A DNA stretch of 64,000 bases from a virus. The stretch covers positions 64,001 to 128,000 of IMG/VR virus record IMGVR_UViG_3300042691_041718. The stretch is one strand, 5' to 3'. Position 1 is the first letter of the stretch. The number at the start of each line of letters is the position of its first letter. Position numbers and translations under genes: made by a program. The notes below the pieces were generated by a model that worked only from the letters and a program-made list of their open reading frames with translations, was not told the origin of the DNA and searched no databases. Of the stretch, positions 6,207-59,332 are shown one piece after another.

Positions 6207-6413
6207 GTGTTGATCATCATGAATAAGAGTCAAATTATAGAAGTTAGTTTACAATTCAGAAAAATTATTATAAACTCCAATTATGGTTTGCCTAATAAGT
6301 TTCTAAATATAGATGATGAATATTATTCAGAAACTTTTAAGTTAAAAATACTTTATAAAAGATTTCATAAAATAGAAAAGATATGGAAAAGTGGGAAGAC
6401 GCACAATCAGTAG
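6207..6413 (+). CDS. Small protein with a PolB motif-B-like segment and an RxxKIxxI tail
   Basis: RKIIINSNYG, then KRFHKIEKIW. ATG at 6219 is the likelier start. Confidence 0.55.
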   Translation: MLIIMNKSQIIEVSLQFRKIIINSNYGLPNKFLNIDDEYYSETFKLKILYKRFHKIEKIWKSGKTHNQ

Positions 6414-7113: not shown

Positions 7114-7343
7114 AAGTTCCTACTATTGAGGTGTTGGTAATGTCTTTATATAATGATATTTTAGATGCTAAGAAAAAATTAAAAAAATTAGAAAATGATT
7201 CAAGACTTAATATTTATCCAAGTCAGATAGATGTTTATCAAGAAATGAGTGAGTTAAAAAATTTTATTCAAAAAAATGAAGAATTATTAAGTCGATACAG
7301 GACTACAATAAGAGATGAAAAACTTAAACAATTGGGTATATGA
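7110..7343 (+). CDS. Small coiled-coil protein with C-terminal tail RDEKLKQLGI
   Basis: 77 aa ORF; ATGA-coupled. Confidence 0.7.
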   Translation: MKVPTIEVLVMSLYNDILDAKKKLKKLENDSRLNIYPSQIDVYQEMSELKNFIQKNEELLSRYRTTIRDEKLKQLGI

Positions 7344-12684: not shown

Positions 12685-12978
12685 ATGTATTTTGTGAAGT
12701 TTGAAAATATAGGAGTCTTTGTTAAAGAGAGTGGTAAACTTGTTAGTTCACCATGGAATCTTAAACATGAAATTTTTCAATTAGAAGAAGGTGAGAATTT
12801 CAAAAAAATGATAAGAAAGAGTCCTTTTGCTAATTGTAAAAGAATAGATTATTTTGATCCAAATAAAAAAGAGGCAATCCCAAGGTATATAATGGATTAC
12901 ATCTTAGACTTGGAAGAAGTGAAGGCTATTATAATTTTAAAAGAGCGAGATAATAAAATAAACCAAATATTAGAGTAA
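12685..12978 (+). CDS. Hypothetical protein with C-terminal tail RDNKINQILE
   Basis: 97 aa; TACTTTTG at 12672..12679 upstream. Confidence 0.65.
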   Translation: MYFVKFENIGVFVKESGKLVSSPWNLKHEIFQLEEGENFKKMIRKSPFANCKRIDYFDPNKKEAIPRYIMDYILDLEEVKAIIILKERDNKINQILE

Positions 12979-13415: not shown

Positions 13416-13919
13416 ATGAATTATGGAACTGAGGAAAGTCCAATAAAGTTATTTAGTATAGAACAAGGAAGAGAATACTTAAATAATTTAAGATGTGAGA
13501 ATGGTGATTATATAATTTACCATCGTTTAGGATCTACTTATATAAATGATAATATATCTGATATATATGAGATTTACACATCATCACACAAATTGGATAA
13601 AATATACATAACTTATGTTGATGAGTGGTTGACTGATTTAAGACCACCGACAGGGTATTTATTTGAAAGTCCATTTCTTTCTGATTTAACGGAGCTATCA
13701 GGAGAGTATATATTTGATGATACAGATTATAATGATGAAGATGGTTATTTAAAACAGTCATTAACTGAGTCAGGTGGGTATAATATGATGGATGATGATT
13801 TTCCACTTGGTGTATTAGATAAATTAATGAAAGAGTTTGTCATTATTGGAAATAAAAGTAAGATAATTGCTGAAATAATTTCTTTTAGAAGAGATAGAAA
13901 ATTAGATGATATATTATAA
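13416..13919 (+). CDS. Hypothetical protein with C-terminal tail RDRKLDDIL
   Basis: 167 aa ORF. Confidence 0.65.
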   Translation: MNYGTEESPIKLFSIEQGREYLNNLRCENGDYIIYHRLGSTYINDNISDIYEIYTSSHKLDKIYITYVDEWLTDLRPPTGYLFESPFLSDLTELSGEYIFDDTDYNDEDGYLKQSLTESGGYNMMDDDFPLGVLDKLMKEFVIIGNKSKIIAEIISFRRDRKLDDIL

Positions 13920-14326
13920 TGTCTTTGAAAAAATATAAAAGTAAATTTGATATAATCGAGAACGATATTGACAAACTTGATATTCGACCATATAATCACT
14001 GTAATGGTCAGTGGTGGTGGGGATTTTATTATGATTGGGATGATGATTATGATGATTATGAGTATGAGTGGGAGTATATTGAATGGGATTATATAAAAAT
14101 ACCGGAAATTGATTGGGGTTATAAAGTTATCAATAAATCATTTCGTAACTGGCGTATCAGTGATCCAAGTGTACCTGGAACTTATGTTGATATGGAAAGT
14201 GTTTATGGTAAATCCGAAATGAGAAATCGTAAGATAGATATGATTTTAGGTTTAAGAGAACCTAATTACCAAACAACTGTAACTCTTGGAGATTTTTTTG
14301 ATAGAATTGATAAACATTCAAATTAA
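13919..14326 (+). CDS. Acidic, Trp/Tyr-rich hypothetical protein with a sub-terminal RNRKIDMIL
   Basis: 135 aa ORF. Confidence 0.6.
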   Translation: MSLKKYKSKFDIIENDIDKLDIRPYNHCNGQWWWGFYYDWDDDYDDYEYEWEYIEWDYIKIPEIDWGYKVINKSFRNWRISDPSVPGTYVDMESVYGKSEMRNRKIDMILGLREPNYQTTVTLGDFFDRIDKHSN

Positions 14327-19008: not shown

Positions 19009-19967
19009 ATCTTTGATAATAATTCTTTTTTCTTTTCCGAAAACTCTTCATCGGTTAAAACACCGGCTTTGTGTAAATCATCTAATTTCTTAATTAAATC
19101 TAAGATACCATCAATCTCTTTTATTTTATCCCATTCTTTTTTCAACTCAGTTTCATTTACTTTATTTTTCAATGGTTCTTTTTTTATATCAGATGTTGAT
19201 ACTGGTTTAACACTCTCAGGTAATAATTGTAAAATAGTTGATGAAATATGATATGTATCAAAGTCCATATCAATCTCAGAGAACTTTTGTGAAGATGATG
19301 ATCCCTTTTCAACTCTACCGGTTTCAAATGAAGTGTTAATCTTATGACCAGAAGATAAAGAACCAATACAATTTGATAAATCCACACCAGTTGTATATGT
19401 TGCATTGGTAGAATTATATGAAGTAGTTGTTGTACTACCACTTGTGTTTGTACCAATAATATTATTTGTGTAATAACCACCAGTTGTATTCCCACTTAAT
19501 GTTCCACTTCCGTAAGTTATCCAAGTGTTTGGGTATGTTGGATATGTAGGATAGTATCTTTCAATTATAACTGTATTAAATCTATCTCTCCAATTTTTAA
19601 TAGAAACAACAGATTCTTTATAAAAGAAAACTTCTAATTTACCGTTATTTTGAGTAGCGTTTATCGATTCTAATGAAGCGTCAACTTCATAAGTTGAAAA
19701 AATAAATTTCTTTTTATCATCAATAAAACAATCAAGATAAAATCTTTGACCTGGTTTTAAAACCAATCCAGTTTTTGAAATTGAATTACCATTTAACTTA
19801 ATATCAGCTAAGACACAGTCTGTAAGTGGATTATATAATTCGATTTGGAATTCTTCGGAATCTTTTAGATAAACTTTTCCGTTTTTAATAGATTTTCTAC
19901 CTCTATCAGTAGAATTTACGACCCAAGCACTTGGCTTAGAAACGTGGTTGTTTGCAATTTTTGCCAT
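19002..19967 (-). CDS. Hypothetical protein with a C-terminal SHOCT domain
   Basis: C-terminus LIKKLDDLHKAGVLTDEEFSEKKKELLSKI; Thr/Ser-rich linker. Confidence 0.7.
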   Translation of the reverse strand: MAKIANNHVSKPSAWVVNSTDRGRKSIKNGKVYLKDSEEFQIELYNPLTDCVLADIKLNGNSISKTGLVLKPGQRFYLDCFIDDKKKFIFSTYEVDASLESINATQNNGKLEVFFYKESVVSIKNWRDRFNTVIIERYYPTYPTYPNTWITYGSGTLSGNTTGGYYTNNIIGTNTSGSTTTTSYNSTNATYTTGVDLSNCIGSLSSGHKINTSFETGRVEKGSSSSQKFSEIDMDFDTYHISSTILQLLPESVKPVSTSDIKKEPLKNKVNETELKKEWDKIKEIDGILDLIKKLDDLHKAGVLTDEEFSEKKKELLSKIC

Positions 19968-25591: not shown

Positions 25592-28500
25592 ATGTGGAAA
25601 TACAATAGTGATTATGGTAAATGGTTTACAAAAACAGATTCTTTATTAAAAGAAGATTTTGATTTTTATAAACAAGAGTTGGTTGCTACTAGGTTTTATT
25701 CAAAAGCCCTAAGTGGTTCAGCTTATGTTGCGATTGATGATGTGAATAATTTATATGATGTTATTAATGCTTGGAAACCAAGAAACTGGTTTGTTAGTAC
25801 ATTAAGTTCTAATTTTGCTTATACACCACAACCGACAAAATTTCCAACTCCAATTGATACAAACTCTCAATATGATTTTTACACAAAAAACTTAAAAGAA
25901 TATAGTCTTACTTTAAAAAATCTTTTTACACCGGAAAGGTTGATGAAAGATATTTTAGCTAATTATATTCAAGTTGATGTAGCTACTACACAACAAATTG
26001 ATTTAACATTAGAGTTGGATAACTATTATATAGATGATATTAAGTTAAAAGATGGCCACAAAGTTTTAGTTAAAGACCAAGTAACATTTGAGATATTAGA
26101 TATATCTGTTAATCCAGATGAATATTTTAAAGGACCTTACACAATAGTTAATGAGGAAGGTTTAGATATAGAATATCAATATTATAGTAATGAGAACGGC
26201 TTATATGAATTTAGGAATAGAAAATTAGTTAAGTTAAATGACTTGGATGACTATGAAAAATGTTCTAGATTAAGCGTTTATGTTAAAATGGGTACAACAA
26301 ATCAAAATAAACAGTTTAGTGTTAGAAGATTATTAAACGGGTTTTATCCAACATCATTCAGAAATGAGCCAATGGAATTCGTTGAAAAACATAATTGGTT
26401 ATTAAGAAACAGAGTAGATTATAATAACTTATTTGAAACTAACTATTATGATATTTTTAGACATGGCACTCAATCTATTTATATAAGTGGTGTAACTTAC
26501 AGTATACCGGAAAGAACAATTGCAGTTGGTGAATTTGGTACAATAGTTAATACTCAAGATGGTTATTCAAATATAATACCTTGTAAATATAAAGATAATT
26601 TAAGAAGTATAACAAGTACTGAAAACTATTACTGGATTTGTGGTGATAATACAACTTTATTAAGAATAGGTAAACATGATTTCGAAATAAAAAATATAAA
26701 ATTAGATACCTATACAAATTTAAGATCAATATCATTTGTTAATAATTTGAGAGGTGTTATCGTAGGTGATTACAATACTATTTATATAACTAATGATGGT
26801 GGTGAAAAATGGCAGTTATTAGATTTTACAAGTTTTAGAGAATACAATTATAATAAGGTTATTTTTGTGACTGATACTAAATTTTATATTGGTGGTAAGA
26901 GTGGTGTATTTTTAGAAATCTCAGAAGATATAAATGGTTGGAGTGCTAGGAAGAGAAGAGTATCTAGACAAATAGATGATGAAGATGAGTATGTTTTAGT
27001 AGATCACATAAATGATTTATGGAAAACATCAATAAGTGGTTGGGGATTAAGTTACTCATACTATACACAATCAATTTCATCACCAAAGGATTTAGTTTTT
27101 ATGGCTGTTGATGGTGGTAAAATAATTGCATATAATGAGAATAATTTTATAGATAGTGACTTTATATATTTTGATTTTGATAAAAATTATGGTGATATAA
27201 AAAATATTACACAACAAAAAGGTACTAATAATTTCTTTTTTAGTAATGATGATGGTATCTATAAATTTGATATTAGTGATTTTAAATACTATGGTGTTGG
27301 TAATACATATTCAAATACAATAATATCAGCAACAGCACCTTCGAAAATATCAAGTTTATACGCAAATAGTTTATATGATTATAGAGGTGAATATTTGTTA
27401 ATAAGTGGAAATTATACTCTTGTTAAATCATCTACACATTCATCATCATATGATTTTGTTGATTTAGACTCGACTTTTTTCTCAAAATTAAAATCAAAGC
27501 TATTATTTATAGATTATGATATGGGTAGTAAATTAAATTTCTTTACTGATGAAGGAAATTATAGATTACCAAATTCAACAATTATAAAACAAAATGTTTT
27601 TTCGGAAAGTACAGAATTAACATTTAATAATTTAGTTTATGGAGCTACTGCCCCAAGTTTCATGACGCAGTCGGAAGTAACTTGGTATGACTATTGGTGT
27701 GATAGAGAAAAGACATTTGAGTATTACTCTGTTAATCCTCTTTCTAACTCATCAAAAGTTTTAATATCAAAAACATTTTCAGGAACTACTCAATTTACGG
27801 TGGCTACTGTCAGTTTTGTGAATACAAACACAGTTGATTTGTTAAAATTAGCACCATCATTTAATTATACTGGTACACAAAGTTCTAGATATAAACACAT
27901 CGGTGCTTCTATATCATCAGTAGGTGGATCTAATTTCACACTATATTTAAAAGATTACTTGATGGTTTTAGGTGTTACAAATAGTACATCAGCAGTTAGT
28001 AATAATAAATCTTTTGATGTTGATTTAGGTGATGTTTTAAGAATTGAATCTGGTGTTGTTGAAGGAAATTTCATAGTTAATAGAATTGAAAATTTCACCA
28101 ATAGTAATAAGTATATTTACATGTTTTCGGATTTTAGTGGAGATATAATAAAAAATCTAAAAACATCAACATCATCTATTGTATTAAAGAATTTAAATAA
28201 ATTTTATAACTCAGATGACTTAATCACTAATTTTAATTCACATCCGCTTGGAATAGGATATAAAATGAGTGATTATGGAGATGGTTACTTAAAAATTGAT
28301 CCTAAATTTAATAACTACACATCTTATTATAATTTAGCAACAGAAATTCATGTAAATTCTGATAATGATTATTTAGAATTTAACTCATCAGACTTTTTAT
28401 ATTATGGTATTCCAGATGGAACAAGCTCTGTCCCACAAACACTTAATTGTAATTCAAATGTTTATCCAACTGAGATTAGAGTTAATTTCAACTTATATCA

Positions 28501-39533: not shown

Positions 39534-39674
39534 CTATATATTAAAAATCTTTCTTAACTTTCTCTTTCTTATACTAACCTTTTCAAAGTTTAATATTTTC
39601 ATTTGATACTCAAAAAACGCACTAGTCATATAGCTTCTACCAACTTGTCTTGATTTTCCCAATATTACATTCAT
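39534..39674 (-). CDS. 46-aa ORF (not in the supplied track): terminase Walker-A-like segment plus RxxKLxxI tail
   Basis: Hand translation MNVILGKSRQVGRSYMTSAFFEYQMKILNFEKVSIRKRKLRKIFNI; ATGA-coupled to the upstream gene. Confidence 0.55.
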   Translation of the reverse strand: MNVILGKSRQVGRSYMTSAFFEYQMKILNFEKVSIRKRKLRKIFNI

Positions 39675-39979
39675 AAACCCAACTCAATTAATTTTATCTC
39701 TCTGATTAAAGCCGTTTTTGTATAATGATTATAATCTAAATTATATTCAGATTTTAAGTAATCTTTAACACATTCGGTATATTTACTATAAACAAAGTCT
39801 TGATAGTTATCATCACACCCCATTACTTCTTTGTAAAACATTCTTTCGAGAATTCTTTCTCTATCTCTGAGTATGGCACCTTCTTCATATCTTTGAGATT
39901 TAATAGCTTTCATCTTTTCATCTCTTAAATCTAAAATATCAATAAGTAGTTGTAACAATTTTACTTTTTCCATATCCAT
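39671..39979 (-). CDS. UVR-domain protein with tail REIKLIELGL
   Basis: KMKAIKSQRYEEGAILRDRERIL fits the UvrB/UvrC/ClpC UVR coiled-coil motif. Confidence 0.6.
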   Translation of the reverse strand: MDMEKVKLLQLLIDILDLRDEKMKAIKSQRYEEGAILRDRERILERMFYKEVMGCDDNYQDFVYSKYTECVKDYLKSEYNLDYNHYTKTALIREIKLIELGL

Positions 39980-46415: not shown

Positions 46416-49400
46416 ATGGGTTGGTCACAAAATATAAATAGAGATACATACATAGGTGGTTCTTTACCATCTGGTATAACAACAGTAATAGCAGATACTC
46501 AAAAAAACTTCGGTTGGACTTATTCTTTGATGAAATATAAAGATAGTCCAAATGAGGCATCTTTCATGGCATTGAGAGTAAATCCATTGATTTACACACA
46601 ATCAAATAGTGATATAACATTCTGGTATAATAGACCGGGTATTTCCACTTTACCTCCTATTTCTGAAAACTATACACAAGCACATATGCTACAAAAAGCT
46701 ATTGGCTTTTATAATACGACTCCAAAAAGTTTCAAAAAGGATAAAGTTTATCAATTTAATACTGTTATGATGAACTACTTACAAATTGGTGAAAATACAA
46801 CTTATGCAAGACAGTGGAGATCACCAGCTTTGTATTTAGTTACTCCAATTGGAGATAAAGCTGAGTTATTAGCTGATAAAACATTTTATAAAGATTATAG
46901 ACAAAATATAAATGGATCAGATTTAACCGATTATGATTTTAAAAAATCTGATACATTTATAATACCTTGGGCTTACTTTGAAAGTAAAGCTAGTTTAGAT
47001 ACACTAAATTCTGTTGATGGTTCTGGTAGAATTTTCACATTTCACTATTACTCGACTCCGAAAGAAGATGTTAGTTCTTTTTTATCAGAAAGACCATCAA
47101 CTTTTTATTCAAATATTTTATTCGGAAATAGTCACGCAAATACAACCTATAACAATCTTATAACTATATCTAATCATAGATATACGGAATTTAAGGGAAA
47201 TGGTAATCAAACATCTGGAAATCATCTTAATACAGGTGAAGGTATTGTATCATACTCCGTAAATGAAACGGATTGGTTAATACAAGGATTTTCATATGTT
47301 AGTTTATTTAAAACTGAGGTTATTACCACACCTTTCACTCCACCTACTACAAGATCAACTTTTTCAGCTAAACCATGGACTGAAGGAGGTAATTTATTTG
47401 GTAACGGTTGGTATGTTGCTCAAAATAGATATATTTGGTATGATAGACCAAAATCAACAACAACAAATTGGCAAAGTATAGTATTTCCAAGTGGAGCTGC
47501 TTTATATAAAGGATTAGCAAATGAACCTTATTTTAATATGCCTGTTGGTGGACCATGGTCAAATGGTCCAACAGTTGATATACCAAACTGGTATGATAGA
47601 TTTGGATTTCATCCAGATGATGAATCAGATGTAATTGGTCTTGTTACACCAAATAGGTCAACAGAGACAGTTAACTCTGGTAGTGGTTTGAATGGGTATT
47701 CAAAAAGTCCACATGAAGGATTTAGAAAAAATAATTATATTGCTAAGTTTATAAATTATGATAAATTCAATTTATCATTTAAGTATAAGAATACAAGAAA
47801 TGATAATATTGGTATAAAATTTTATTTATCTAGTAGACTTCCTTCACAAAGACCAATTGCTACTTATATAGCATCATCGTCACCAAATTTAACAATAGCA
47901 GATTGGGGAACAACAACTGATACAATTAGTGTACCATTAGATTCAAATAATTACTTAACTAGTGCTACTACATTAAAAGAGATTAAGGTAACAGTTAATA
48001 TAGATCATACTTGGGATGGTGATTTAATTTTAAATCTAAAAGGTCCAGCAGCTAATGATGTTCAAGGTATTGGTAAAGTTATAAATTTATTTAATAGAGA
48101 AAAAGGAAATAGTGATAATTTAAAATCAACCGTTTTCACATCAGATGATACTAAAAATAGTATATCTAAAGGATCAGCTCCTTTTACTGATACATTTAGA
48201 ATGAAAAAAGATGTTGGTGTTGGATATGGTGCTTATAGATCAAATACACAGGATATTAGAAAACTATTAAATTCATCAGATAGTATAGTAGGTAACTGGA
48301 CACTTTACATAAAAGATGACGCTGGGTTAGATGTTGGTAAATTAAATACATGGACAATAGAATTTTTATTTGATGATAATTCAAGTCAAAATTATTTAGG
48401 ATCTTTAACTTATAGTGTTACAGATAAAGATTATACATTCTATGGTTTACAAGGAAATCAATATCTAATATTCGTTGGGGATACAGTGCCTCAAACAACT
48501 GGAGCAACATACATTGTCGCATCATTAACAGATTTAAAAATCGAAGAAACCTATCATATCCAAAATAATACATTATTATCCGTTGGTACAAATAGTTTTC
48601 CTACTGGTTATCTAAACTATGGATTTGGACTATTCGACTCATATGATTATATAGAAACTCCAAAGTTTTATTATAATATAGGAGTTGGTAATACTTTAAA
48701 TGCTGTAAGATCAATAACTTATTCTACCATAAAGACAAAAGTTGGAACCGGTAAATTTAAATCTGGTATATGGGAGGATGGTAATTGGATAAATGGTTAT
48801 AGAGAAGATAGAAGTGTTAGAAACTTTTTTGATGTGAGTCAATTCTACTCATATAATAGAGATAAAAAATGGAGATTAACAATCTCTGGACCATCATATA
48901 ATGTTAATAATTTTAATGTTGGAGATAAAATATCTATTTCTAATATAGTTGCTATAGATATAAACAATGAAAGAAAACTTATTAGAAATTATTATACTGT
49001 GATAAGTAAAACTAATAATACATTATTAGTTGAGTTTGAATATGATTTTCCATTAAGAAGAGTTGAAAAAGATTCACCTTATCATTTTATTTACGTAACT
49101 AAAAATATTTGGTTAAGTGGTAATTTCTTCAATGGATATTTTAATGGTGGTGTTTGGACAAACGGTAGCTTCTATGGATTACCACATACTACTAAAATGG
49201 TTGATACTCAATGGATAGATGGTGAGTTATCTGGTGGTCACTTTAAATCAAATATTATTTCATTCACATATTCATCAGGTAATATTGGACTAACAAATTC
49301 ATCAACTGGATTAAGAGGTAGATTTATTAATATAACTTTAAGTGCAACACATTCTTTAAATGTTGGTGATGAGATATATGTTAGTGAATTTGAAGATGAT

Positions 49401-52166: not shown

Positions 52167-54125
52167 TTAGTCTAAGAAGTTTACCTCCTCAATTGTTGAG
52201 AAAACATCTTTGTTTATTTTTAAAATTCTATCGAACATTTCTTGATTTAAGATAGCATGGTGTACAACAAATATATTTATGTTATACTCGTTTGCGAACG
52301 ATTTTAAGAGTGTTAAAATAGAATCTATACCTTCGATATCAATTGAAGAGAAAACCTCGTCTAAGAACAAAATATTGATATGTCGTTTAGTTCGGATTAA
52401 CTTTAAGTAAGCAATTAAAATAGCAATGTTTACTTTTTTATTCTCACCAGTAGATAATGAATCACTTTCAATTGGTGAACCAAATTGTCTGATTTCCGCT
52501 GTAAATGTTTCATCCAACTTAACATCAAAAGCAATACCCATCTTAGTTATATTCTCATGTATAAAGTGGTTAAGTGGTTTAATAATACCAGCAATAATTG
52601 ACTTTTTAACACCATCTTCACCAAATATTCTAGATAGTTCTTTATAGTATAATTCTTTATCTTTACAAACTGTAACATTATCTTTACTAAAAGACATTTT
52701 TTCTTCTAACTCTTCAATTGATTTTTTAAACTCGTCAACATTTGGTAAGTTATCAACTTGTTCAAGTTCTTTCTTTTTAGTTAGTTGATCAATTTGAGTT
52801 TTACAGTTCTTTAAAAAGAAACTCATTTCGCTGAATGTTTCATTTGTTTTAGTTGAAATTTCTTTCAGTTTAAGTTGCTTCTCTTTTATATTTTTGATAT
52901 TCTCGTCTATTTCAGTCTTAATTTTTTCAAAACCCTCTTTTTTCTCAACAAGTGATTGTCTTAAAGAAGAGTAGTAATCAGAATTAAAATCTGTTCTACA
53001 AGTGGGACATTTACCAGAGTCATAAAGATCGATCTCTTTCTGTGTATTACGAATATCATTTTGGATATTAATGTATTGTTTTTTTTCATTTTCAATTTCA
53101 TTTGATAAAATTTCCTCTTTTTCTTTAATCTTTTCTACTTTTTCTTTAAGAGCTTTATAATCTTCCTTTTTAGAATTCATTTCTTCCATAAGACGATCAA
53201 TATCAGCTTGTAGATTTAATTTTTCTTTTTCAATTGAAAGTTTAATAGTTTTATCAATTGATCTTTGAATTGATTCAATAGACTCTTCTAAAGTATTTAT
53301 TTCAGAGTTTAAAGAAGCCATTCTTGTTTTATTTGACTTGTTTATATCTTTTAAAATACTATTTAAGATATTGATTACTTCTAAGTTAAAAAGTTTATCT
53401 AAAAGTAGTTGTTTTTCTTCATTTGAAAGAGATATAAAGTTTTTGAAGTCATTTATAGACATAGATATAAAAGATTTGAATGTTTCAATATCCATACCTA
53501 CATACTTTTCAATCTTTTCATCTATATTTGATTTACCAGCTCTTTCATTGTGAACTCCGTTTTCCCAAAGTTCCAACTTATTTGGTGAAATACCTCTTTT
53601 GATTTCAACATCAACACCGTTAGAATTGAATGAAATTCTATTTAATAATTCACCATTAATTCTATTTGGGAGAGTTGATAAAGTAGACCATTTTTTTTGA
53701 CGGCCACCTCTTACTTTACCATAAAGTGTATATTCAAAGGAAGATAGAAATGATGAATTATGACTTAATATTCCATTAGAATAGTATTCATGACCATCTA
53801 CTTCAATATCCCATAAATCTTCTCTTTTATCATCTTTTAATATTGATAAAATAGTCTGTACACCATTTTTAGTATTTATAAAATCACCTATTTTTAGATT
53901 TTTTAAGAAAATCCAATTTTCTAAATATTTAACTCTGTGATTTGGAGAACCAATCAATTCAAAATCCTTTGTTTTTATTATTATTTTTTCGGAATTAGGT
54001 GATGTTATACCAATTTCTTTTATATTTTTCCAACCATTTGGAGTATTTACTTTAACACCTTTATTGATGATAGACAGTTTATTATTTAGAATATTCAGCC
54101 TTTTTAGATCTATTTTAAATTCCAT
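52167..54125 (-). CDS. C-terminal half of an SbcC/Rad50 (T4 gp46-like) ATPase, preceded by a C-intein
   Basis: After ...ILSHN comes SSFLSSFEYTLYG, coiled coils, CPTC hook, LSTGE signature, LFLDE Walker B, SSID D-loop and VVHH. Confidence 0.92.
   Translation of the reverse strand: MEFKIDLKRLNILNNKLSIINKGVKVNTPNGWKNIKEIGITSPNSEKIIIKTKDFELIGSPNHRVKYLENWIFLKNLKIGDFINTKNGVQTILSILKDDKREDLWDIEVDGHEYYSNGILSHNSSFLSSFEYTLYGKVRGGRQKKWSTLSTLPNRINGELLNRISFNSNGVDVEIKRGISPNKLELWENGVHNERAGKSNIDEKIEKYVGMDIETFKSFISMSINDFKNFISLSNEEKQLLLDKLFNLEVINILNSILKDINKSNKTRMASLNSEINTLEESIESIQRSIDKTIKLSIEKEKLNLQADIDRLMEEMNSKKEDYKALKEKVEKIKEKEEILSNEIENEKKQYINIQNDIRNTQKEIDLYDSGKCPTCRTDFNSDYYSSLRQSLVEKKEGFEKIKTEIDENIKNIKEKQLKLKEISTKTNETFSEMSFFLKNCKTQIDQLTKKKELEQVDNLPNVDEFKKSIEELEEKMSFSKDNVTVCKDKELYYKELSRIFGEDGVKKSIIAGIIKPLNHFIHENITKMGIAFDVKLDETFTAEIRQFGSPIESDSLSTGENKKVNIAILIAYLKLIRTKRHINILFLDEVFSSIDIEGIDSILTLLKSFANEYNINIFVVHHAILNQEMFDRILKINKDVFSTIEEVNFLD
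53757..54125 (-). mobile_element. C-intein fragment (123 aa) of a split intein
   Basis: VNTPNGWKNI, block B LIGSPNHRV, LKIGDFI, block F/G LWDIEVDGHEYYSNGILSHN; +1 residue Ser. Confidence 0.88.
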
Positions 54126-55653
54126 ATATACTTTTTATTTTATTTTCTATTTCTTCTATATTGTTTGAAAAAAAATGTTTAATATTATTATCAATACAAA
54201 ATGATTTTTTTTCATTATATTTATCATTGTGTTTTTTGATTTTATACATACCTGTATATTCTATATAAATATCATGATCAATTAAATAAAAATCACATCT
54301 TTTTTTAGAATTTGGATATAATTTTTCGTACTTATATGAAATTTCATTATATTTTAAAAATTTAGCAATCATATACTCACCGGAACTTCTACAAAGATGA
54401 TTATTATAATATCTCATGTAACCATATTTGCATTTTATACTTGGATTAACAGACATTAGATATTCAAACATTTTTTCATAAGTAGTTTTATAAAAATATG
54501 ATACTATAACTTTTTTTATTTTTAAAACAATATCAGTTATACTAAAGTTTTCCATTAAATAATCTACTAATTTAAAATAATTATCAAAAGATAATAAAAA
54601 AACAATATCTTCTTTATCTTTAAAATTATTAGATTTTATAAACTCATCTACCCATTTATCACCATACATTTTTTCATAATATGATGGAGTTCCATAAGTT
54701 TTTTCATAATTTTCCAAAAGAAATGAATACATATCTTCTTTATTCGTATTGTATATTTCATATAATACTGAATAATTAAGTCTATAACTTATTTTAGCTA
54801 AAGTTAAATTATCATTTATAAGAGTTATTATCATATCTTTATAATTCTCAAATGATAATAGATATCTAATATCTTCTTTATCTTTAAATGATGTAGTTTC
54901 TATATACTTTTCCAACCAAATATCACCATACTTATTTTTAAAATGTTCTATGGATCTAGAATCTTTATCATCGATTCCATTGTAATCGGATTCCATCAAA
55001 GATTTTCGCCATTTATTTTGGCGTTCTGACCAAATTCTTTTACCTTCATCGGATCCATATTTAGAAATACACTTTTCTAATGAAAATGTTGATTGTCTAT
55101 TAGATAATTTAATTTTAGATTCTTCTAAATTAAAACCTTTGTTTATCCAGTAATTTATATTATTACTTCTTTTTGATGATATAATTTCTCTAAACTCCAC
55201 ATCATTTTCCAATTTTGATATAAAACAACTATTACTATTTTTCTGAAACTCATTTGACTTTATTATAGAATTTTCCAATGTATATCCTCTCTCCATCCAA
55301 TATTCCTTGTTCATTTTTCGTTGAGATTTTATTTTATATTCAGAATCTTCTAAACTAAATCCCCTTTTTAACCAAAAATTTATATTCATAGGAGATGTTT
55401 CAACATTTTTAATTGTTGGTACTCTTTTTATTTTAGCGGTTTCTTCATCCCAGCCTCTACTTAACCAATATATTAGAGTTTTTTTACCAAACTTTGGCAT
55501 TCCTATTAAAGACTTCATTTTTGATATAAATGAGGTCTTCCCACATTCAAAATTAAAATCTTTAAATAGATTTAAGATCTCATTTTTTTTATCTGGGTGA
55601 AAATCAATTAGATAATTATCTAATTGATTTTTGTTTTTTAATATATTGCTCAT
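54115..55653 (-). mobile_element. Free-standing PD-(D/E)xK/Vsr-like endonuclease between the split-intein halves
   Basis: Repeats of YW.xRG(W/F/Y)x.E; C-terminal RSSGEYMIAKFL...YKYE...RCDFYL...IYIEYTG. Confidence 0.75.
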
Positions 55654-55915
55654 ATAAAGAATAATTATTTTCTTTTATATATTCAATATATTCCTTTCCC
55701 CCATCCATTATTTCCAAAAAAGTACAAAAATCATCTATATTCAAATTATCTATTGAAAATTTTATCTCAATCTCAGTTTTATCAACAACAGATTTTCCAT
55801 TTCCGTTGTTTCCAACTAGTAAGATAAGTTCTCCTTTTTCTGTATTTAATTTTACGACTTGTTCATTATTTCCGAATGATTTAAAACCTCTAATTCCAAT
55901 TTCGCTAATCAGCAT
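55616..55915 (-). CDS. N-terminal 41 aa of the SbcC/gp46 ATPase plus a 58-aa N-intein
   Basis: IGIRGFKSFGN and LLVGNNGNGK (Walker A), then SVVDKTEIEIK, which fits intein block A (S/C-x4-T-x-I); the N-intein starts at 55792. Confidence 0.85.
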   Translation of the reverse strand: MLISEIGIRGFKSFGNNEQVVKLNTEKGELILLVGNNGNGKSVVDKTEIEIKFSIDNLNIDDFCTFLEIMDGGKEYIEYIKENNYSLYEQYIKKQKSIR

Positions 55916-55947: not shown

Positions 55948-56322
55948 TTATTGAAATAAGTTTGAGTTAGTTGCTGTTATTATTTCCTCCGGTTTTACTT
56001 CATCTAAAACAATTTTACCTAAGTCTTCTTCGTAATATGAAACATATTTTTCAAAGTCAACTTCATCCAATCTTTTAGATATTTCTTCATATGGAATTAA
56101 TTTTTTTAAAATACTTTCTAATAAGTCTTTATATCCATCCCATAATTCTATATTCATGCCAATTACATCTTCAACTGTTTCATCAGTCGTTAAGACAATA
56201 TTTTTATCTGAATAAAAAATGGTACCTTCGTAAAATTTATTATCTATATTTAGACTAATTAATACCAAGACACCATTTTCATATTTACCCATATAATCTA
56301 CTATATCGGCTTTAATCTCCAT
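55948..56322 (-). CDS. Hypothetical protein
   Basis: 124 aa acidic ORF. Confidence 0.6.
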   Translation of the reverse strand: MEIKADIVDYMGKYENGVLVLISLNIDNKFYEGTIFYSDKNIVLTTDETVEDVIGMNIELWDGYKDLLESILKKLIPYEEISKRLDEVDFEKYVSYYEEDLGKIVLDEVKPEEIITATNSNLFQ

Positions 56323-56548
56323 TTAAAATATCATTTATTTTTTCATCTCTTTTAATCTGATCATTATTTAATAAATAACCAGAATTAATTAAAGTCCACT
56401 TAATGGACTCAGCCATTTCATTTCTACCATCACCATAAGCATATAACATATCTTTATAGTAGGTGTGAATTGCCTGTCTTTCTTCTTTATCTTCTAATTT
56501 GTGTATTTTATTTAAATCTAAAAAATATTTTCCAATTTTATCATTCAT
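56312..56548 (-). CDS. Hypothetical protein with tail RDEKINDIL
   Basis: 78 aa ORF. Confidence 0.65.
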   Translation of the reverse strand: MNDKIGKYFLDLNKIHKLEDKEERQAIHTYYKDMLYAYGDGRNEMAESIKWTLINSGYLLNNDQIKRDEKINDILNGD

Positions 56549-56556
56549 TATAATTA

Positions 56557-56829
56557 TTACAATTTTTCATCAATAATAAATTCAATCTTTTTAAATCTAT
56601 TATCTAAGTCTGTGAAGATAATTGATATTTTATCAACATCTTTAAACTCTCTCGCTTCACCAGTAAATTCGTTTACCATTACATCTTTTTTGTAAACTAC
56701 ATCAATACCTGGCTCTTCACCTAAAAATCTTCTCATATCTTCCTTGATTTGAGATAATTTCCAATCATCTACTTTAAAATTTATTTTAGAAATATAATCT
56801 CTAATTGCGATTTCTTTCATTGAGTTCAT
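56557..56829 (-). CDS. Hypothetical protein
   Basis: 90 aa ORF. Confidence 0.6.
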   Translation of the reverse strand: MNSMKEIAIRDYISKINFKVDDWKLSQIKEDMRRFLGEEPGIDVVYKKDVMVNEFTGEAREFKDVDKISIIFTDLDNRFKKIEFIIDEKL

Positions 56830-57214: not shown

Positions 57215-57478
57215 TTATTTTTTAAATATATCTTCTTTATAAGAAGAGATTAGTTTACTTATCTCTTTTTGAGCCTTATTTTTATCTAACTCACCTATTG
57301 GAATATAAAAAGTCTTACGATATGGAATCGGATATGTCGGTGATTTCTTACCATACAATTTAGCAATTTTATTTCTTCTTTCGAATGTTTGTAACATACC
57401 AGTTATATCCTCCCATACATTTTTCTTCTTTTTCTTAACAAAGAGACTTTTTACAAACTCCACTATTTTATTTATCAT
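57215..57478 (-). CDS. Mini protein with a portal-like segment and an internal RRNKIAKL
   Basis: RKTFYIPIGELDKNKAQKEISKLISSYKED. Confidence 0.6.
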   Translation of the reverse strand: MINKIVEFVKSLFVKKKKKNVWEDITGMLQTFERRNKIAKLYGKKSPTYPIPYRKTFYIPIGELDKNKAQKEISKLISSYKEDIFKK

Positions 57479-57713
57479 AAATTTTTTTAATTTTTACTCT
57501 TCTTTTATCATGTCTTGGGTTGTATGGAAACCAATAGTTATTGAAAGATATAAAATGACCTGATAAGTCAACCTCTCCAGTTTTTTCATCAATCTTTATA
57601 GAAAATTTTTTATAATTACTTTTTCTTCTTACCAAGTGTTTTAACACTTCTTTTAACTTCTTCATCATCAGTATCGTCTCCGTATTTAAAATCCAAGTGA
57701 AATAGAGTACCAA
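57468..57713 (-). CDS. Mini protein with a portal-like segment and tail RRVKIKKI
   Basis: IKIDEKTGEVDLSGHFISFNNYWFP. The start is uncertain (GTG 57713 or ATG near 57668). Confidence 0.5.
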   Translation of the reverse strand: MVLYFTWILNTETILMMKKLKEVLKHLVRRKSNYKKFSIKIDEKTGEVDLSGHFISFNNYWFPYNPRHDKRRVKIKKIYDK

Positions 57714-58008
57714 CCGGTCCTTTATAATCAGGGTGTTCAGTAATATCCATTTCTTTATATTCCTTATCTTCGATTAAAGATTCTATTATTCTATCACGAT
57801 TTTCAGCTTTAACTTCATTTTTAATTCTTTCCATTTCTTCTTCTGAAGTTCCACCTGGTGATGTTGTATTTTCTTCAATTTTTGTATTTGAATGTAGTTC
57901 AGCATATTCAGCCATCCAATCGGCTTTTGATCCAGTGACACCAATATTATTTAAAATAGGTGCCCATTTTTTCATTAATTCTTCTTTATTTGGTTTTTCC
58001 ATAAACAA
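57616..58008 (-). CDS. Mini protein with major-capsid-like segments and an internal RDRIIESL
   Basis: KEELMKKWAPIL and GPVGTLFHLDFKYG. Confidence 0.6.
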   Translation of the reverse strand: MFMEKPNKEELMKKWAPILNNIGVTGSKADWMAEYAELHSNTKIEENTTSPGGTSEEEMERIKNEVKAENRDRIIESLIEDKEYKEMDITEHPDYKGPVGTLFHLDFKYGDDTDDEEVKRSVKTLGKKKK

Positions 58009-58047
58009 AAAAACTTTTCTTTTTATAGAAAAGTTTTAGTTAAATGT

Positions 58048-58329
58048 TTATAAGTTATATTCATGTGTTAGTATATCAATAACTTTATCTTCATCTTTAA
58101 TATCTCTTTGAAATTCCTCCTCAAACCAAACAATCATATCAATCAAGTCTGATTTATCATTTACCTCTCCTTTTGGATATTTTTCCTTAATTTTAGTAAT
58201 AATGAAATCAATATCATCTTCTACGTTTCTATAAGCAGGAATACCAGTTTCTTCTCTTTCTTCTTTTGACATATCTTCCCAATCTTTATTATAGTCAAAA
58301 CCTTCTTTAAATTTTTTTAAATATTTCAT
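58048..58329 (-). CDS. Hypothetical protein with a capsid-targeting-like N-terminus
   Basis: Starts MKYLKKFKEGF. Confidence 0.55.
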   Translation of the reverse strand: MKYLKKFKEGFDYNKDWEDMSKEEREETGIPAYRNVEDDIDFIITKIKEKYPKGEVNDKSDLIDMIVWFEEEFQRDIKDEDKVIDILTHEYNL

Positions 58330-58333
58330 AATT

Positions 58334-59332
58334 TTATTTTAATTTTAAGTTGAAATAAACCCAAGAATTGTTTGGTTTAACATTATATTGTACTTTATCA
58401 GACCATTTTTTATTTATAATCCAGTTATTAAAGTTTTGTTTTATATTTTCATATTCTCCTAAGTCTAATTGACCATTATCCCAAGTACCAATGTTATAAT
58501 AACCAATAGATATTACTCTATCACTTACACACACTTTTGATTTCTTATCAAAGAAACCTGGATTGAAACTAGTTAAATCTTTTTTAATTTTACTAATTAA
58601 CATCAATTCATTAAAATTAAAGTTTACTAAGCTCTTTTTAAGATTATAAGCTGATTTAAGATCTAAACCAAGAATCCATTTTATAACACTTGTTGATAAT
58701 TTAAATTGTCCTATTGGTTGATTAACAATACCATATTCAAACAAACCATTATCTTTAATACCATAATAAAGTTCAATCTCATTTCTATCATATGGTACAT
58801 CATTTACATATCTTTTAAGTGATGAAAATCTATTAAATATAGATTTAACATCATCTGAATTTAATTCGAATAAAAAATAAAAAAGATAGTCATCTGGTAA
58901 TTTTTCATTATTTGGTAAGACATCTTTTTGACCAAGTGCTGTTAAACACTTTAAAAATGATGTGAAAATGTTTTTACCAGCCATAGTAATTTCTGATTCA
59001 GTTAGGGGTTCTAAATCAGTTGAAAATTCTACATTAGTTTCTTTCTCCTGTATACCATTATCAATAAAATCTTTTATTAATGATTCTATTTCATTTTTAG
59101 TATTATCATCTAATATGTTAATCGCATTTGATAATCTAATATCAGAAGGTATATCACTCAAATCATCTTCTCTACTAATATTAAATTCTCTATTTACTAT
59201 ATTTTTGATATATTCTAAATCATCACCTTCTAAAGTTGAATATAAATACTCAACCCATTCACCTAATGAGTTAAAATCTTCTCTATTTTTACTAAAAGAC
59301 TCATTAATGAATTCTAAATATTTCTTAATCAT
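58334..59332 (-). CDS. Hypothetical protein with a capsid-targeting-like N-terminus
   Basis: Starts MIKKYLEFINESF; late motif 4 nt upstream. Confidence 0.6.
   Translation of the reverse strand: MIKKYLEFINESFSKNREDFNSLGEWVEYLYSTLEGDDLEYIKNIVNREFNISREDDLSDIPSDIRLSNAINILDDNTKNEIESLIKDFIDNGIQEKETNVEFSTDLEPLTESEITMAGKNIFTSFLKCLTALGQKDVLPNNEKLPDDYLFYFLFELNSDDVKSIFNRFSSLKRYVNDVPYDRNEIELYYGIKDNGLFEYGIVNQPIGQFKLSTSVIKWILGLDLKSAYNLKKSLVNFNFNELMLISKIKKDLTSFNPGFFDKKSKVCVSDRVISIGYYNIGTWDNGQLDLGEYENIKQNFNNWIINKKWSDKVQYNVKPNNSWVYFNLKLK

Follow-up and report, generated by a model that had tools for sequence, protein, structure and literature searches.

A truncated paralogue of the gp23-like major capsid protein, encoded by a separate conserved gene on huge-phage contigs

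We found that a small open reading frame of an uncultured virus encodes a short protein derived from the gp23-like major capsid protein (MCP). Its ancestry and architecture were established by sequence and profile comparisons, by which the protein, here called mini-MCP, is a truncated paralogue of the MCP. The window, meaning the whole stretch of 64,000 nucleotides that was analysed, comprises bases 64001-128000 of a 186-kb IMG/VR virus record with 27% G+C and a CheckV completeness of 69%. The nearest database genomes are those of the uncultured phages LR745206 and LR756502 (634-642 kb), together with metagenomic contigs of 221-629 kb. Neither an MCP gene of the gp23 family nor a portal gene of the T4 type was found in the 186-kb record.

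The first-pass annotation, made from the letters of the window, had claimed a small capsid-derived ORF here, and both parts of that claim held: the frame 57616..58008 on the minus strand is open and has homologues, and the product is derived from an MCP. The ORF listing places the start at a TTG at 58008. The start codon is, however, probably the ATG at 58002, because all close homologues begin MEKPN, and this gives a gene at 57616..58002 that encodes 128 aa plus a stop (pI 5.0). With the window ORF as query, neither Pfam nor PHROG returned a match. The gene and its parts are as follows.

57616..58002, minus strand: coding sequence of mini-MCP, 128 aa, with 167 homologues and 604 representative clusters.
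57883..58002, minus strand: N-terminal 40 residues, a predicted helix-turn-helix homologous to the propeptide and scaffold-contact region of the MCP (61% identity, E=2e-15; hhalign E=7e-29; AlphaFold2 helices at residues 8-22 and 27-40).
57859..57868, minus strand: junction of an in-frame deletion of 102 bp (34 codons) at a CATCA microhomology (DNA alignment against contigs L018 and L019).
57715..57861, minus strand: helical module SPGG...EHPDYKGP, with no MCP counterpart (joint alignment; hhalign E=0.17; AlphaFold2 helix at residues 56-80).
57775..57804, minus strand: ENRDRIIESL, the window form of a shared motif (family consensus ENRDRKIDSIL) that terminates many other small ORFs of the genome.
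57679..57714, minus strand: VGTLFHLDFKYG, homologous to MCP residues ~117-130, the T4 gp23 QVFALRAVYG region (hhalign E=3.7e-6; mafft alignment).
57619..57678, minus strand: charged C-terminal tail, whose DNA also holds the beginning of the next ORF (ATG 57668) in another frame.

Two motifs in this protein had been likened to gp23, and both resemblances reflect, on the profile evidence, true homology and not chance. Over the first 41 residues, which contain motif 1 (KEELMKKWAPIL...), identity with the N-terminal end of an MCP of the gp23 family from a huge phage is 61%, with a pairwise E=2e-15. A profile comparison with gp23-family capsids, the check proposed in the first-pass annotation, returned homology. 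When the family profile was aligned to the huge-phage MCP profile with hhalign, the probability was 99.8% and E=7e-29, with family columns 5-83 matching MCP 7-115; against T4 gp23 the probability was 90% and E=1.6e-6, with family 1-86 matching gp23 1-122. T4 gp23 was also the best PDB sequence match. For motif 2 (GPVGTLFHLDFKYG), the profile of the family's C-terminal 42 columns aligned with MCP 116-140 at E=3.7e-6, in exact collinear continuation of the first alignment. The MCP N-terminus is almost invariant among 20 related MCPs, and it is this N-terminus that the mini-MCP ORF matches; the residues KW.P.L, GVTG and W..EY are invariant in the MCP and the mini family alike.

The further view that the protein joins two distant gp23 motifs did not survive. 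In T4 gp23 the two motifs lie at residues 6-17 and ~116-132, about 100 residues apart, and mini-MCP keeps their order and roughly their spacing. The protein copies the first ~140 MCP residues in collinear order, with a helix inserted, and the linker with RDRIIESL that had been described between the motifs was found at 57775..57804. Homology to the N-terminal propeptide and N-arm of the Gp23 family (PF07068) is present in mini-MCP at the profile values given above. The Pfam gathering threshold for that family was not reached: the window ORF had no match, and the full-length homologue P0002 scored 20.2 bits against a cut-off of 24.4. The body of the HK97 fold, that is, the P domain with its spine helix and the A domain, is absent from mini-MCP, which stops at MCP residue ~140. 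Because this body is absent, the mini-MCP family is, judged by its sequence, not a capsid protein.

A joint alignment showed that the family corresponds to MCP residues 1 to ~140 with two changes. The Gly-rich linker of the MCP (~residues 45-85) is cut to a few residues, and a helical module of 45-50 aa, which includes ...IK.EVKAENRDRKIDSILEDKEF.EM.I.EHPDY..., interrupts the turn that joins MCP residues 115 and 116. Within the module N-R, I and E-H-x-D are invariant in the family. The module had no match in the MCP when compared with hhalign (E=0.17), and a derivation from the MCP spine helix was rejected on the same value. A reading of EHPDY as part of a J-domain was likewise rejected, since it has no Pfam DnaJ match and its Pro varies.

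AlphaFold2 was run for a full-length homologue and for the window allele. The full-length homologue, modelled with a 61-sequence alignment, gave no compact fold (mean pLDDT 60, pTM 0.28). Only the N-terminal helix-turn-helix (pLDDT 70-79) and the long helix of the module (82-86) were confident, and both strand segments fell below 50. The window allele showed the same three helices (8-22, 27-40 and 56-80) at lower confidence, and the pTM over both models was 0.28-0.30. The models thus predict no autonomous fold, a pattern that fits a partner-dependent protein. Four I/L-x-E motifs occur in the window protein, at residues 42-44, 72-74, 76-78 and 87-89. Of 61 family members, 54 retain the I/L-x-E at family position 112. 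The first of the four window motifs coincides with the invariant I-N-E-N site of the MCP, and that propeptide-equivalent I/L-x-E is kept in only 26 of the 61.

The family is large. Sequence matches to the window protein comprised 167 proteins of 128-167 aa, and a profile search of 1.8 billion representatives returned 604 clusters at E<=1e-3, including 245 at E<=1e-10. It thus consists of small proteins of 85-190 aa, in at least 600 clusters, on huge-phage metagenomic contigs of 220-640 kb. It is absent from the cultured phages of a 50,697-record collection and has no Pfam or PHROG entry, and no description of such a gene was found in the searchable literature. Many members (85-108 aa) begin just before the first strand, without the MCP-like N-terminus, and one member (P0255) is without most of the helix. 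Because natural members lack different modules, the family architecture appears from sequence to be modular and to tolerate module loss.

In LR745206 and LR756502 a complete MCP gene (ORFs of 560 and 571 aa; open frames of 567-572 aa) and a complete portal gene (571-583 aa) lie ~90 kb from the mini gene, as does a protease-scaffold fusion of 699-707 aa. Because these relatives hold the full-length MCP and portal so far off, mini-MCP is, by gene content and order, an extra paralogue encoded by a separate conserved gene in fixed synteny, and not a split capsid gene. A split or interrupted MCP gene was rejected on two grounds, namely that an intact MCP ORF of 560-571 aa lies elsewhere in the relatives and that the family end point is identical in more than 100 contigs. 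An artefact of an alternative genetic code was also rejected, since table 11 gives open frames for the MCP, portal and mini genes alike. The relatives encode prohead protease and scaffold as a single 699-707-aa protein (L022 4273-6369; L023 7047-9167), with ~12 repeats of 14 residues, YSEYIAENLDKNI, each of which carries an I/L-x-E-N site.

The conserved gene string begins with a 320-337-aa gene, a 92-94-aa gene, mini-MCP, one or two small ORFs and a T5orf172 gene, and continues with three small genes, a gp46-like nuclease gene, bS21 and a DnaJ-domain gene. This order is conserved in contigs of 221-629 kb. In the window the gp46/SbcC-like gene is fragmented (52167-55915) into two pieces, one of 99 aa with the Walker A motif and one of 652 aa that gives a weak Hint-domain match. 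A 512-aa HNH-type endonuclease gene lies between the two pieces, and the relatives have a single 570-580-aa gene. Elsewhere in the window, a 102-aa ORF (39671-39979) has a 30-aa stretch in common with a 728-aa protein of the same genome (G000:C1:35402-37588; 57% identity, E=6e-6), and this stretch resembles a UVR-type motif. The immediate neighbours of mini-MCP are as follows.

58334..59332, minus strand: 332-aa gene, first of the co-oriented gene string, with leader MIKKYLEFINE, preceded by AATATATA.
58048..58329, minus strand: 93-aa gene directly upstream, a conserved neighbour, with leader MKYLKKFKE like the T4 capsid-targeting-sequence type.
58010..58037, minus strand: hairpin of 11 bp, then a U-run (dG -11.2 kcal/mol, z -3.2).
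57468..57668, minus strand: 66-aa ORF ending RRVKIKKIYDK (shared motif), whose portal similarity is not significant.
57215..57478, minus strand: 87-aa ORF with the shared motif RRNKIAKLY, then a weak portal-like segment (Pfam Portal_T4 E=0.0025; BLAST E=5e-5).

The N-terminal leaders of the two genes directly upstream of mini-MCP are conserved. The strict leader pattern MK.[IL][KR].[FY]..E marks 16 of the record's 262 ORF starts, and not one of the 974 internal Met positions has it; the leader of the 332-aa gene is a looser variant outside the strict pattern. Examples start at window positions 58329, 4305, 2665 and 17052, and the leader is conserved in the family of the 93-aa gene. By analogy, it resembles the capsid-targeting principle of T4 (PMC9026906). 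Mini-MCP itself begins MEKPNKEEL and is without the strict leader pattern. The hairpin between the 93-aa gene and the mini-MCP start codon has a loop that reads CUAUAAAAAG. A hairpin occurs at the same place in five relatives (z -2.7 to -6.4), with its structure conserved and its sequence different.

Of the 90 copies of the DNA motif AATATATA, 59% have an ORF start no more than 45 nt downstream, and the usual distance to the ATG is 4 or ~21 nt. In LR756502 and LR745206 the motif stands before the portal, protease-scaffold and MCP genes, and here before the 332-aa gene; instances lie upstream of window positions 59332 and 55653. Because ~55 genes of many kinds follow it, the motif does not define late genes. 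A second motif, TATAAATA, was rejected as a late promoter, since the window shows no enrichment (33 copies against 26.6 expected) and only 16% of the copies are upstream of ORFs.

The helical module links mini-MCP to other small ORFs. The 186-kb genome has 11 instances of the motif R-x-x-K-[IV]-x-x-[IL]-[LIYF], where shuffled sequences gave 1.4 +/- 1.2. Most of the instances form the very end of small ORFs, at the C-terminus; four such ORFs follow closely downstream of mini-MCP. The motif is conserved in homologues of these ORFs. These homologues are on contigs of 221-629 kb. The ORFs that bear the motif are as follows.

Window coordinates: 56312-56548, 56557-56829, 57215-57478, 57468-57668, 12685-12975 and 13919-14323.
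Record coordinates (G000:C1): 7173-7343, 19676-19915, 26730-26942, 47505-47753 and 168378-168956.

The family consensus ENRDRKIDSIL fits this motif, and the window allele RDRIIESL has Ile for Lys; in mini-MCP the motif is internal and not C-terminal. Mini-MCP thus carries the helix motif in the form R-x-x-K/I-I-x-x-L, and it adjoins other small ORFs that bear the motif. The motif may be a common docking or targeting helix.

Two portal fragments had been placed directly downstream of mini-MCP, and one of them was weakly supported. The 87-aa ORF matched Pfam Portal_T4 (E=0.0025) and residues 278-305 of a relative's portal (E=5e-5), a weak but repeatable similarity, and a homologue search with it gave two close matches only. 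A similar ORF adjoins mini-MCP in LR745206. For the 66/81-aa ORF the portal match was not significant (E=0.83). The 66-aa ORF starts 53 nt within the 3' end of mini-MCP (window 57616-57668) in another frame; in more distant relatives the overlap is 4 nt only and the mini-MCP tail is different.

When all small ORFs were compared by BLAST with a relative's head proteins and corrected for multiple testing, only mini-MCP, one scaffold-repeat ORF and the 87-aa ORF survived. A PolB mimic (6207..6413) and a terminase mimic (39534..39674) were unsupported and had no Pfam match. Gp32-like and RegA-like mimics were also unsupported, with weak matches (E=0.027 and 0.007), and the gp32-like ORF had no BLAST match to the genome's own gp32. 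Over 56 aa, the 57-aa ORF at G000:C1:7173-7343 shows 32% identity (E=0.004) to the motif conserved at the N-terminus of gp21-type prohead proteases, and it ends with the tag NRQSKIRKIYSK; the protease match was not significant after multiple testing. Another small ORF (G000:C1:26730-26942) has a weak Gp23 Pfam match to profile positions 164-196, the spine-helix region, followed by the tag, and the same spine-helix-like ORF is present in both 630-640-kb relatives (L014 1462-1674; L015 1453-1656).

A distant 1.1-kb ENA contig, L021, brings several of these pieces together, with C-terminal tags (NREKIIDELL) close to ENRDRIIESL. Its 79-aa ORF (151-390) consists of scaffold-type YSEYIAE repeats (E=5e-16 to a relative's scaffold) plus the tag. 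The adjoining 243-aa ORF (383-1114) fuses in one frame a piece like the MCP C-terminus (E=0.026), a portal-like piece (E=9e-5), which is similar to the 87-aa ORF, and the mini-MCP core. Because of this fusion and the scaffold-repeat ORF beside it, we considered whether mini-MCP belongs to a new gene class of short copies of head-morphogenesis proteins (MCP N-terminus, MCP helix, portal, scaffold repeats and protease) that bear a common helical tag, and that would jointly blind capsid-motif sensors or govern the assembly of very large capsids by competitive docking. We regard so broad a grouping as rather improbable.

What, then, might mini-MCP do? By analogy with T4, we tentatively propose that it is a prohead-core or head-assembly accessory protein, or a modulator of the MCP-scaffold interaction, acting through the scaffold-contact region of the MCP; this is a real possibility, though somewhat short of probable. 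Before the T4 head expands, the N-terminal part of gp23 as far as L106 lies inside it and probably touches the scaffold (the gp22 core), and the substitutions A66D, A94V and G97S are head-length mutants (PMC9546572). Entry of proteins into the T4 core is directed by N-terminal propeptides, and gp21 cleaves after L/I-x-E (PMC9026906). Mini-MCP would dock on the protease-scaffold core or on MCP N-termini by the helix-turn-helix that the MCP uses, and the docked protein would serve as a prohead-core accessory or change the MCP-scaffold stoichiometry. Docking at this place is proposed because mini-MCP is just that region of the MCP, predicted to be unable to fold alone, and because the same region in T4 is internal in the prohead, probably contacts the scaffold and alters head length when mutated. 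The gp21-type prohead protease may cut mini-MCP at its I/L-x-E sites, and the inserted helix would bind a partner common to the other motif-bearing small proteins.

Such a role in head assembly agrees with the MCP homology and collinearity, the separate conserved gene, the synteny, the shared invariant residues, the lack of a predicted autonomous fold, the I/L-x-E motifs, the upstream leaders and the AATATATA that heads the gene string. Against it are the position of the gene, beside recombination and translation genes (gp46-like, bS21, DnaJ-like) and far from the head module in relatives, the retention of the propeptide-site I/L-x-E in only 26 of 61 members, the lack of homology to gp67 and gp68, and the unspecific distribution of AATATATA. 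Moreover, scaffold docking by the N-terminal part cannot be the whole function, because many members lack that part.

A natural deletion bears on several of the alternatives. Compared with the otherwise near-identical contigs L018 and L019, exactly 102 bp (34 codons) are missing in frame from the window, with the break between 57863 and 57864 at a CATCA microhomology. The deleted segment aligns with T4 gp23 residues ~89-117 and is the source of the Pfam Gp23 match in the full-length form; full-length members keep a segment aligned with T4 gp23 ~89-123 that the window allele is without. The Gol peptide of T4 gp23 comprises residues ~93-122, and the deleted stretch includes most of it. It also covers the sites of the head-length mutants A94V and G97S (sites per PMC9546572). 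Contig L020, from another sample, has the same deletion with several different N-terminal codons (94% amino acid identity). Because the same deletion sits on this different N-terminal haplotype, the sequences indicate that the deletion allele persists in nature and has recombined.

The Gol peptide raises the question of whether mini-MCP is a decoy or antagonist of defences that read short MCP motifs (Lit-type or CapRel-type), binding the sensor or a co-factor without triggering it, with the neighbouring mini-ORFs doing likewise for other head proteins. Within gp23, Gol occupies 29 residues of the first quarter and is the most conserved part of the protein, and it binds EF-Tu (PMC3014915). Lit and CapRel sense short motifs, and Avs sensors wrap whole folds (bioRxiv 10.64898/2026.01.04.697583). 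Full-length members keep the segment aligned with this region, and its presence or absence between near-identical phage genomes is as expected under arms-race selection. The mini gene also lies outside the head module, and small neighbouring ORFs weakly resemble portal and scaffold pieces. However, a copy of a trigger motif should activate such a sensor and not silence it, and deletion from the paralogue gives no escape when the essential MCP retains the motif. No sensor is known in the host group, and most of the other claimed mimics were not statistically significant. We therefore consider a decoy unlikely. If it were true, it would be a new kind of counter-defence.

Alternatively, the window allele could be neutral or in decay, a deletion variant that does little or nothing, with the family as a whole still functional. 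The loss of 102 bp at a 5-bp microhomology is typical of replication slippage, and it removed one of the two conserved strand segments, including (nearly) invariant family columns. Yet the reading frame is kept, the same deletion persists and recombines on the second haplotype in L020, and the loss of the N-terminus or of most of the helix in other members argues that the architecture tolerates missing modules. Decay of this allele thus seems quite unlikely.

It is very unlikely that mini-MCP tunes capsid protein production as a modulator of MCP translation or folding, by binding EF-Tu or a chaperone. Gol binds EF-Tu domains II-III and may matter for gp23 translation or folding (PMC3014915), and bS21 and a J-domain gene belong to the conserved string, but the case is one of analogy, the window allele is without the Gol-equivalent segment, and EHPDY is no J-domain. 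A dominant-negative 'poison' subunit that would act, in co-infection, on head assembly by competing relatives of the phage is highly improbable. A fragment with the inter-subunit and scaffold contacts of the MCP would be the classical design for it, and the family's faster evolution than the MCP N-terminus might speak for it; but the protein is closest to its own clade's MCP, whose N-terminus is nearly invariant, so that its own assembly would be poisoned too, and there is no evidence of co-infection.

The capsids of huge phages are far larger than that of T4. The family copies exactly the MCP region that in T4 probably contacts the scaffold and carries the length mutants, which makes it a candidate factor for head assembly or size control. 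Natural alleles that have or lack the Gol-equivalent segment provide ready material for comparing the readings.

Several known systems can be set beside mini-MCP. The N-terminal region of T4 gp23 and of huge-phage gp23-family MCPs (propeptide, N-arm and Gol) is collinear with it over MCP 1-140, with conserved residues kept, whereas mini-MCP is without the P, A and I domains, has a shortened Gly-rich linker and an added helix of 45-50 aa, and is encoded by a free-standing gene ~90 kb from the MCP gene. The vertex protein gp24 of T4, a full-length MCP paralogue, is likewise a capsid-gene duplication, but gp24 keeps the full fold and builds pentons, whereas mini-MCP keeps the first quarter only and is predicted to have no fold alone. 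In the Gol/Lit system the Gol peptide of gp23 is the trigger of the Lit protease; the aligned segment is kept in full-length family members and deleted in the window allele, and no Lit-like partner is known for mini-MCP. The HK97 delta domain and other scaffold-contacting MCP N-termini show that the N-terminal MCP region can be the scaffold interface (PMC9546572). In those systems the region belongs to the MCP, whereas in mini-MCP it is copied out as a separate protein. The internal proteins of T4 with a capsid-targeting sequence follow the same principle, in that a protein enters the prohead through the affinity of its short N-terminal peptide for the core (PMC9026906), but the putative targeting part of mini-MCP is the MCP's own N-terminus, and the leaders that resemble capsid-targeting sequences are on the two upstream genes. 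The prohead core proteins gp67 and gp68 of T4 are, like mini-MCP, small and acidic with I/L-x-E sites, and share with it a proposed role in the scaffold core and head-size control; the mini-MCP gene, however, does not lie between the portal and protease genes, and homology to gp67 and gp68 was rejected (hhalign E=0.09 and 0.3). On the favoured reading, the family would belong to the small proteins of head assembly or of the core, with the N-terminus of the MCP itself as its building material, and the gene is new to the searchable literature.
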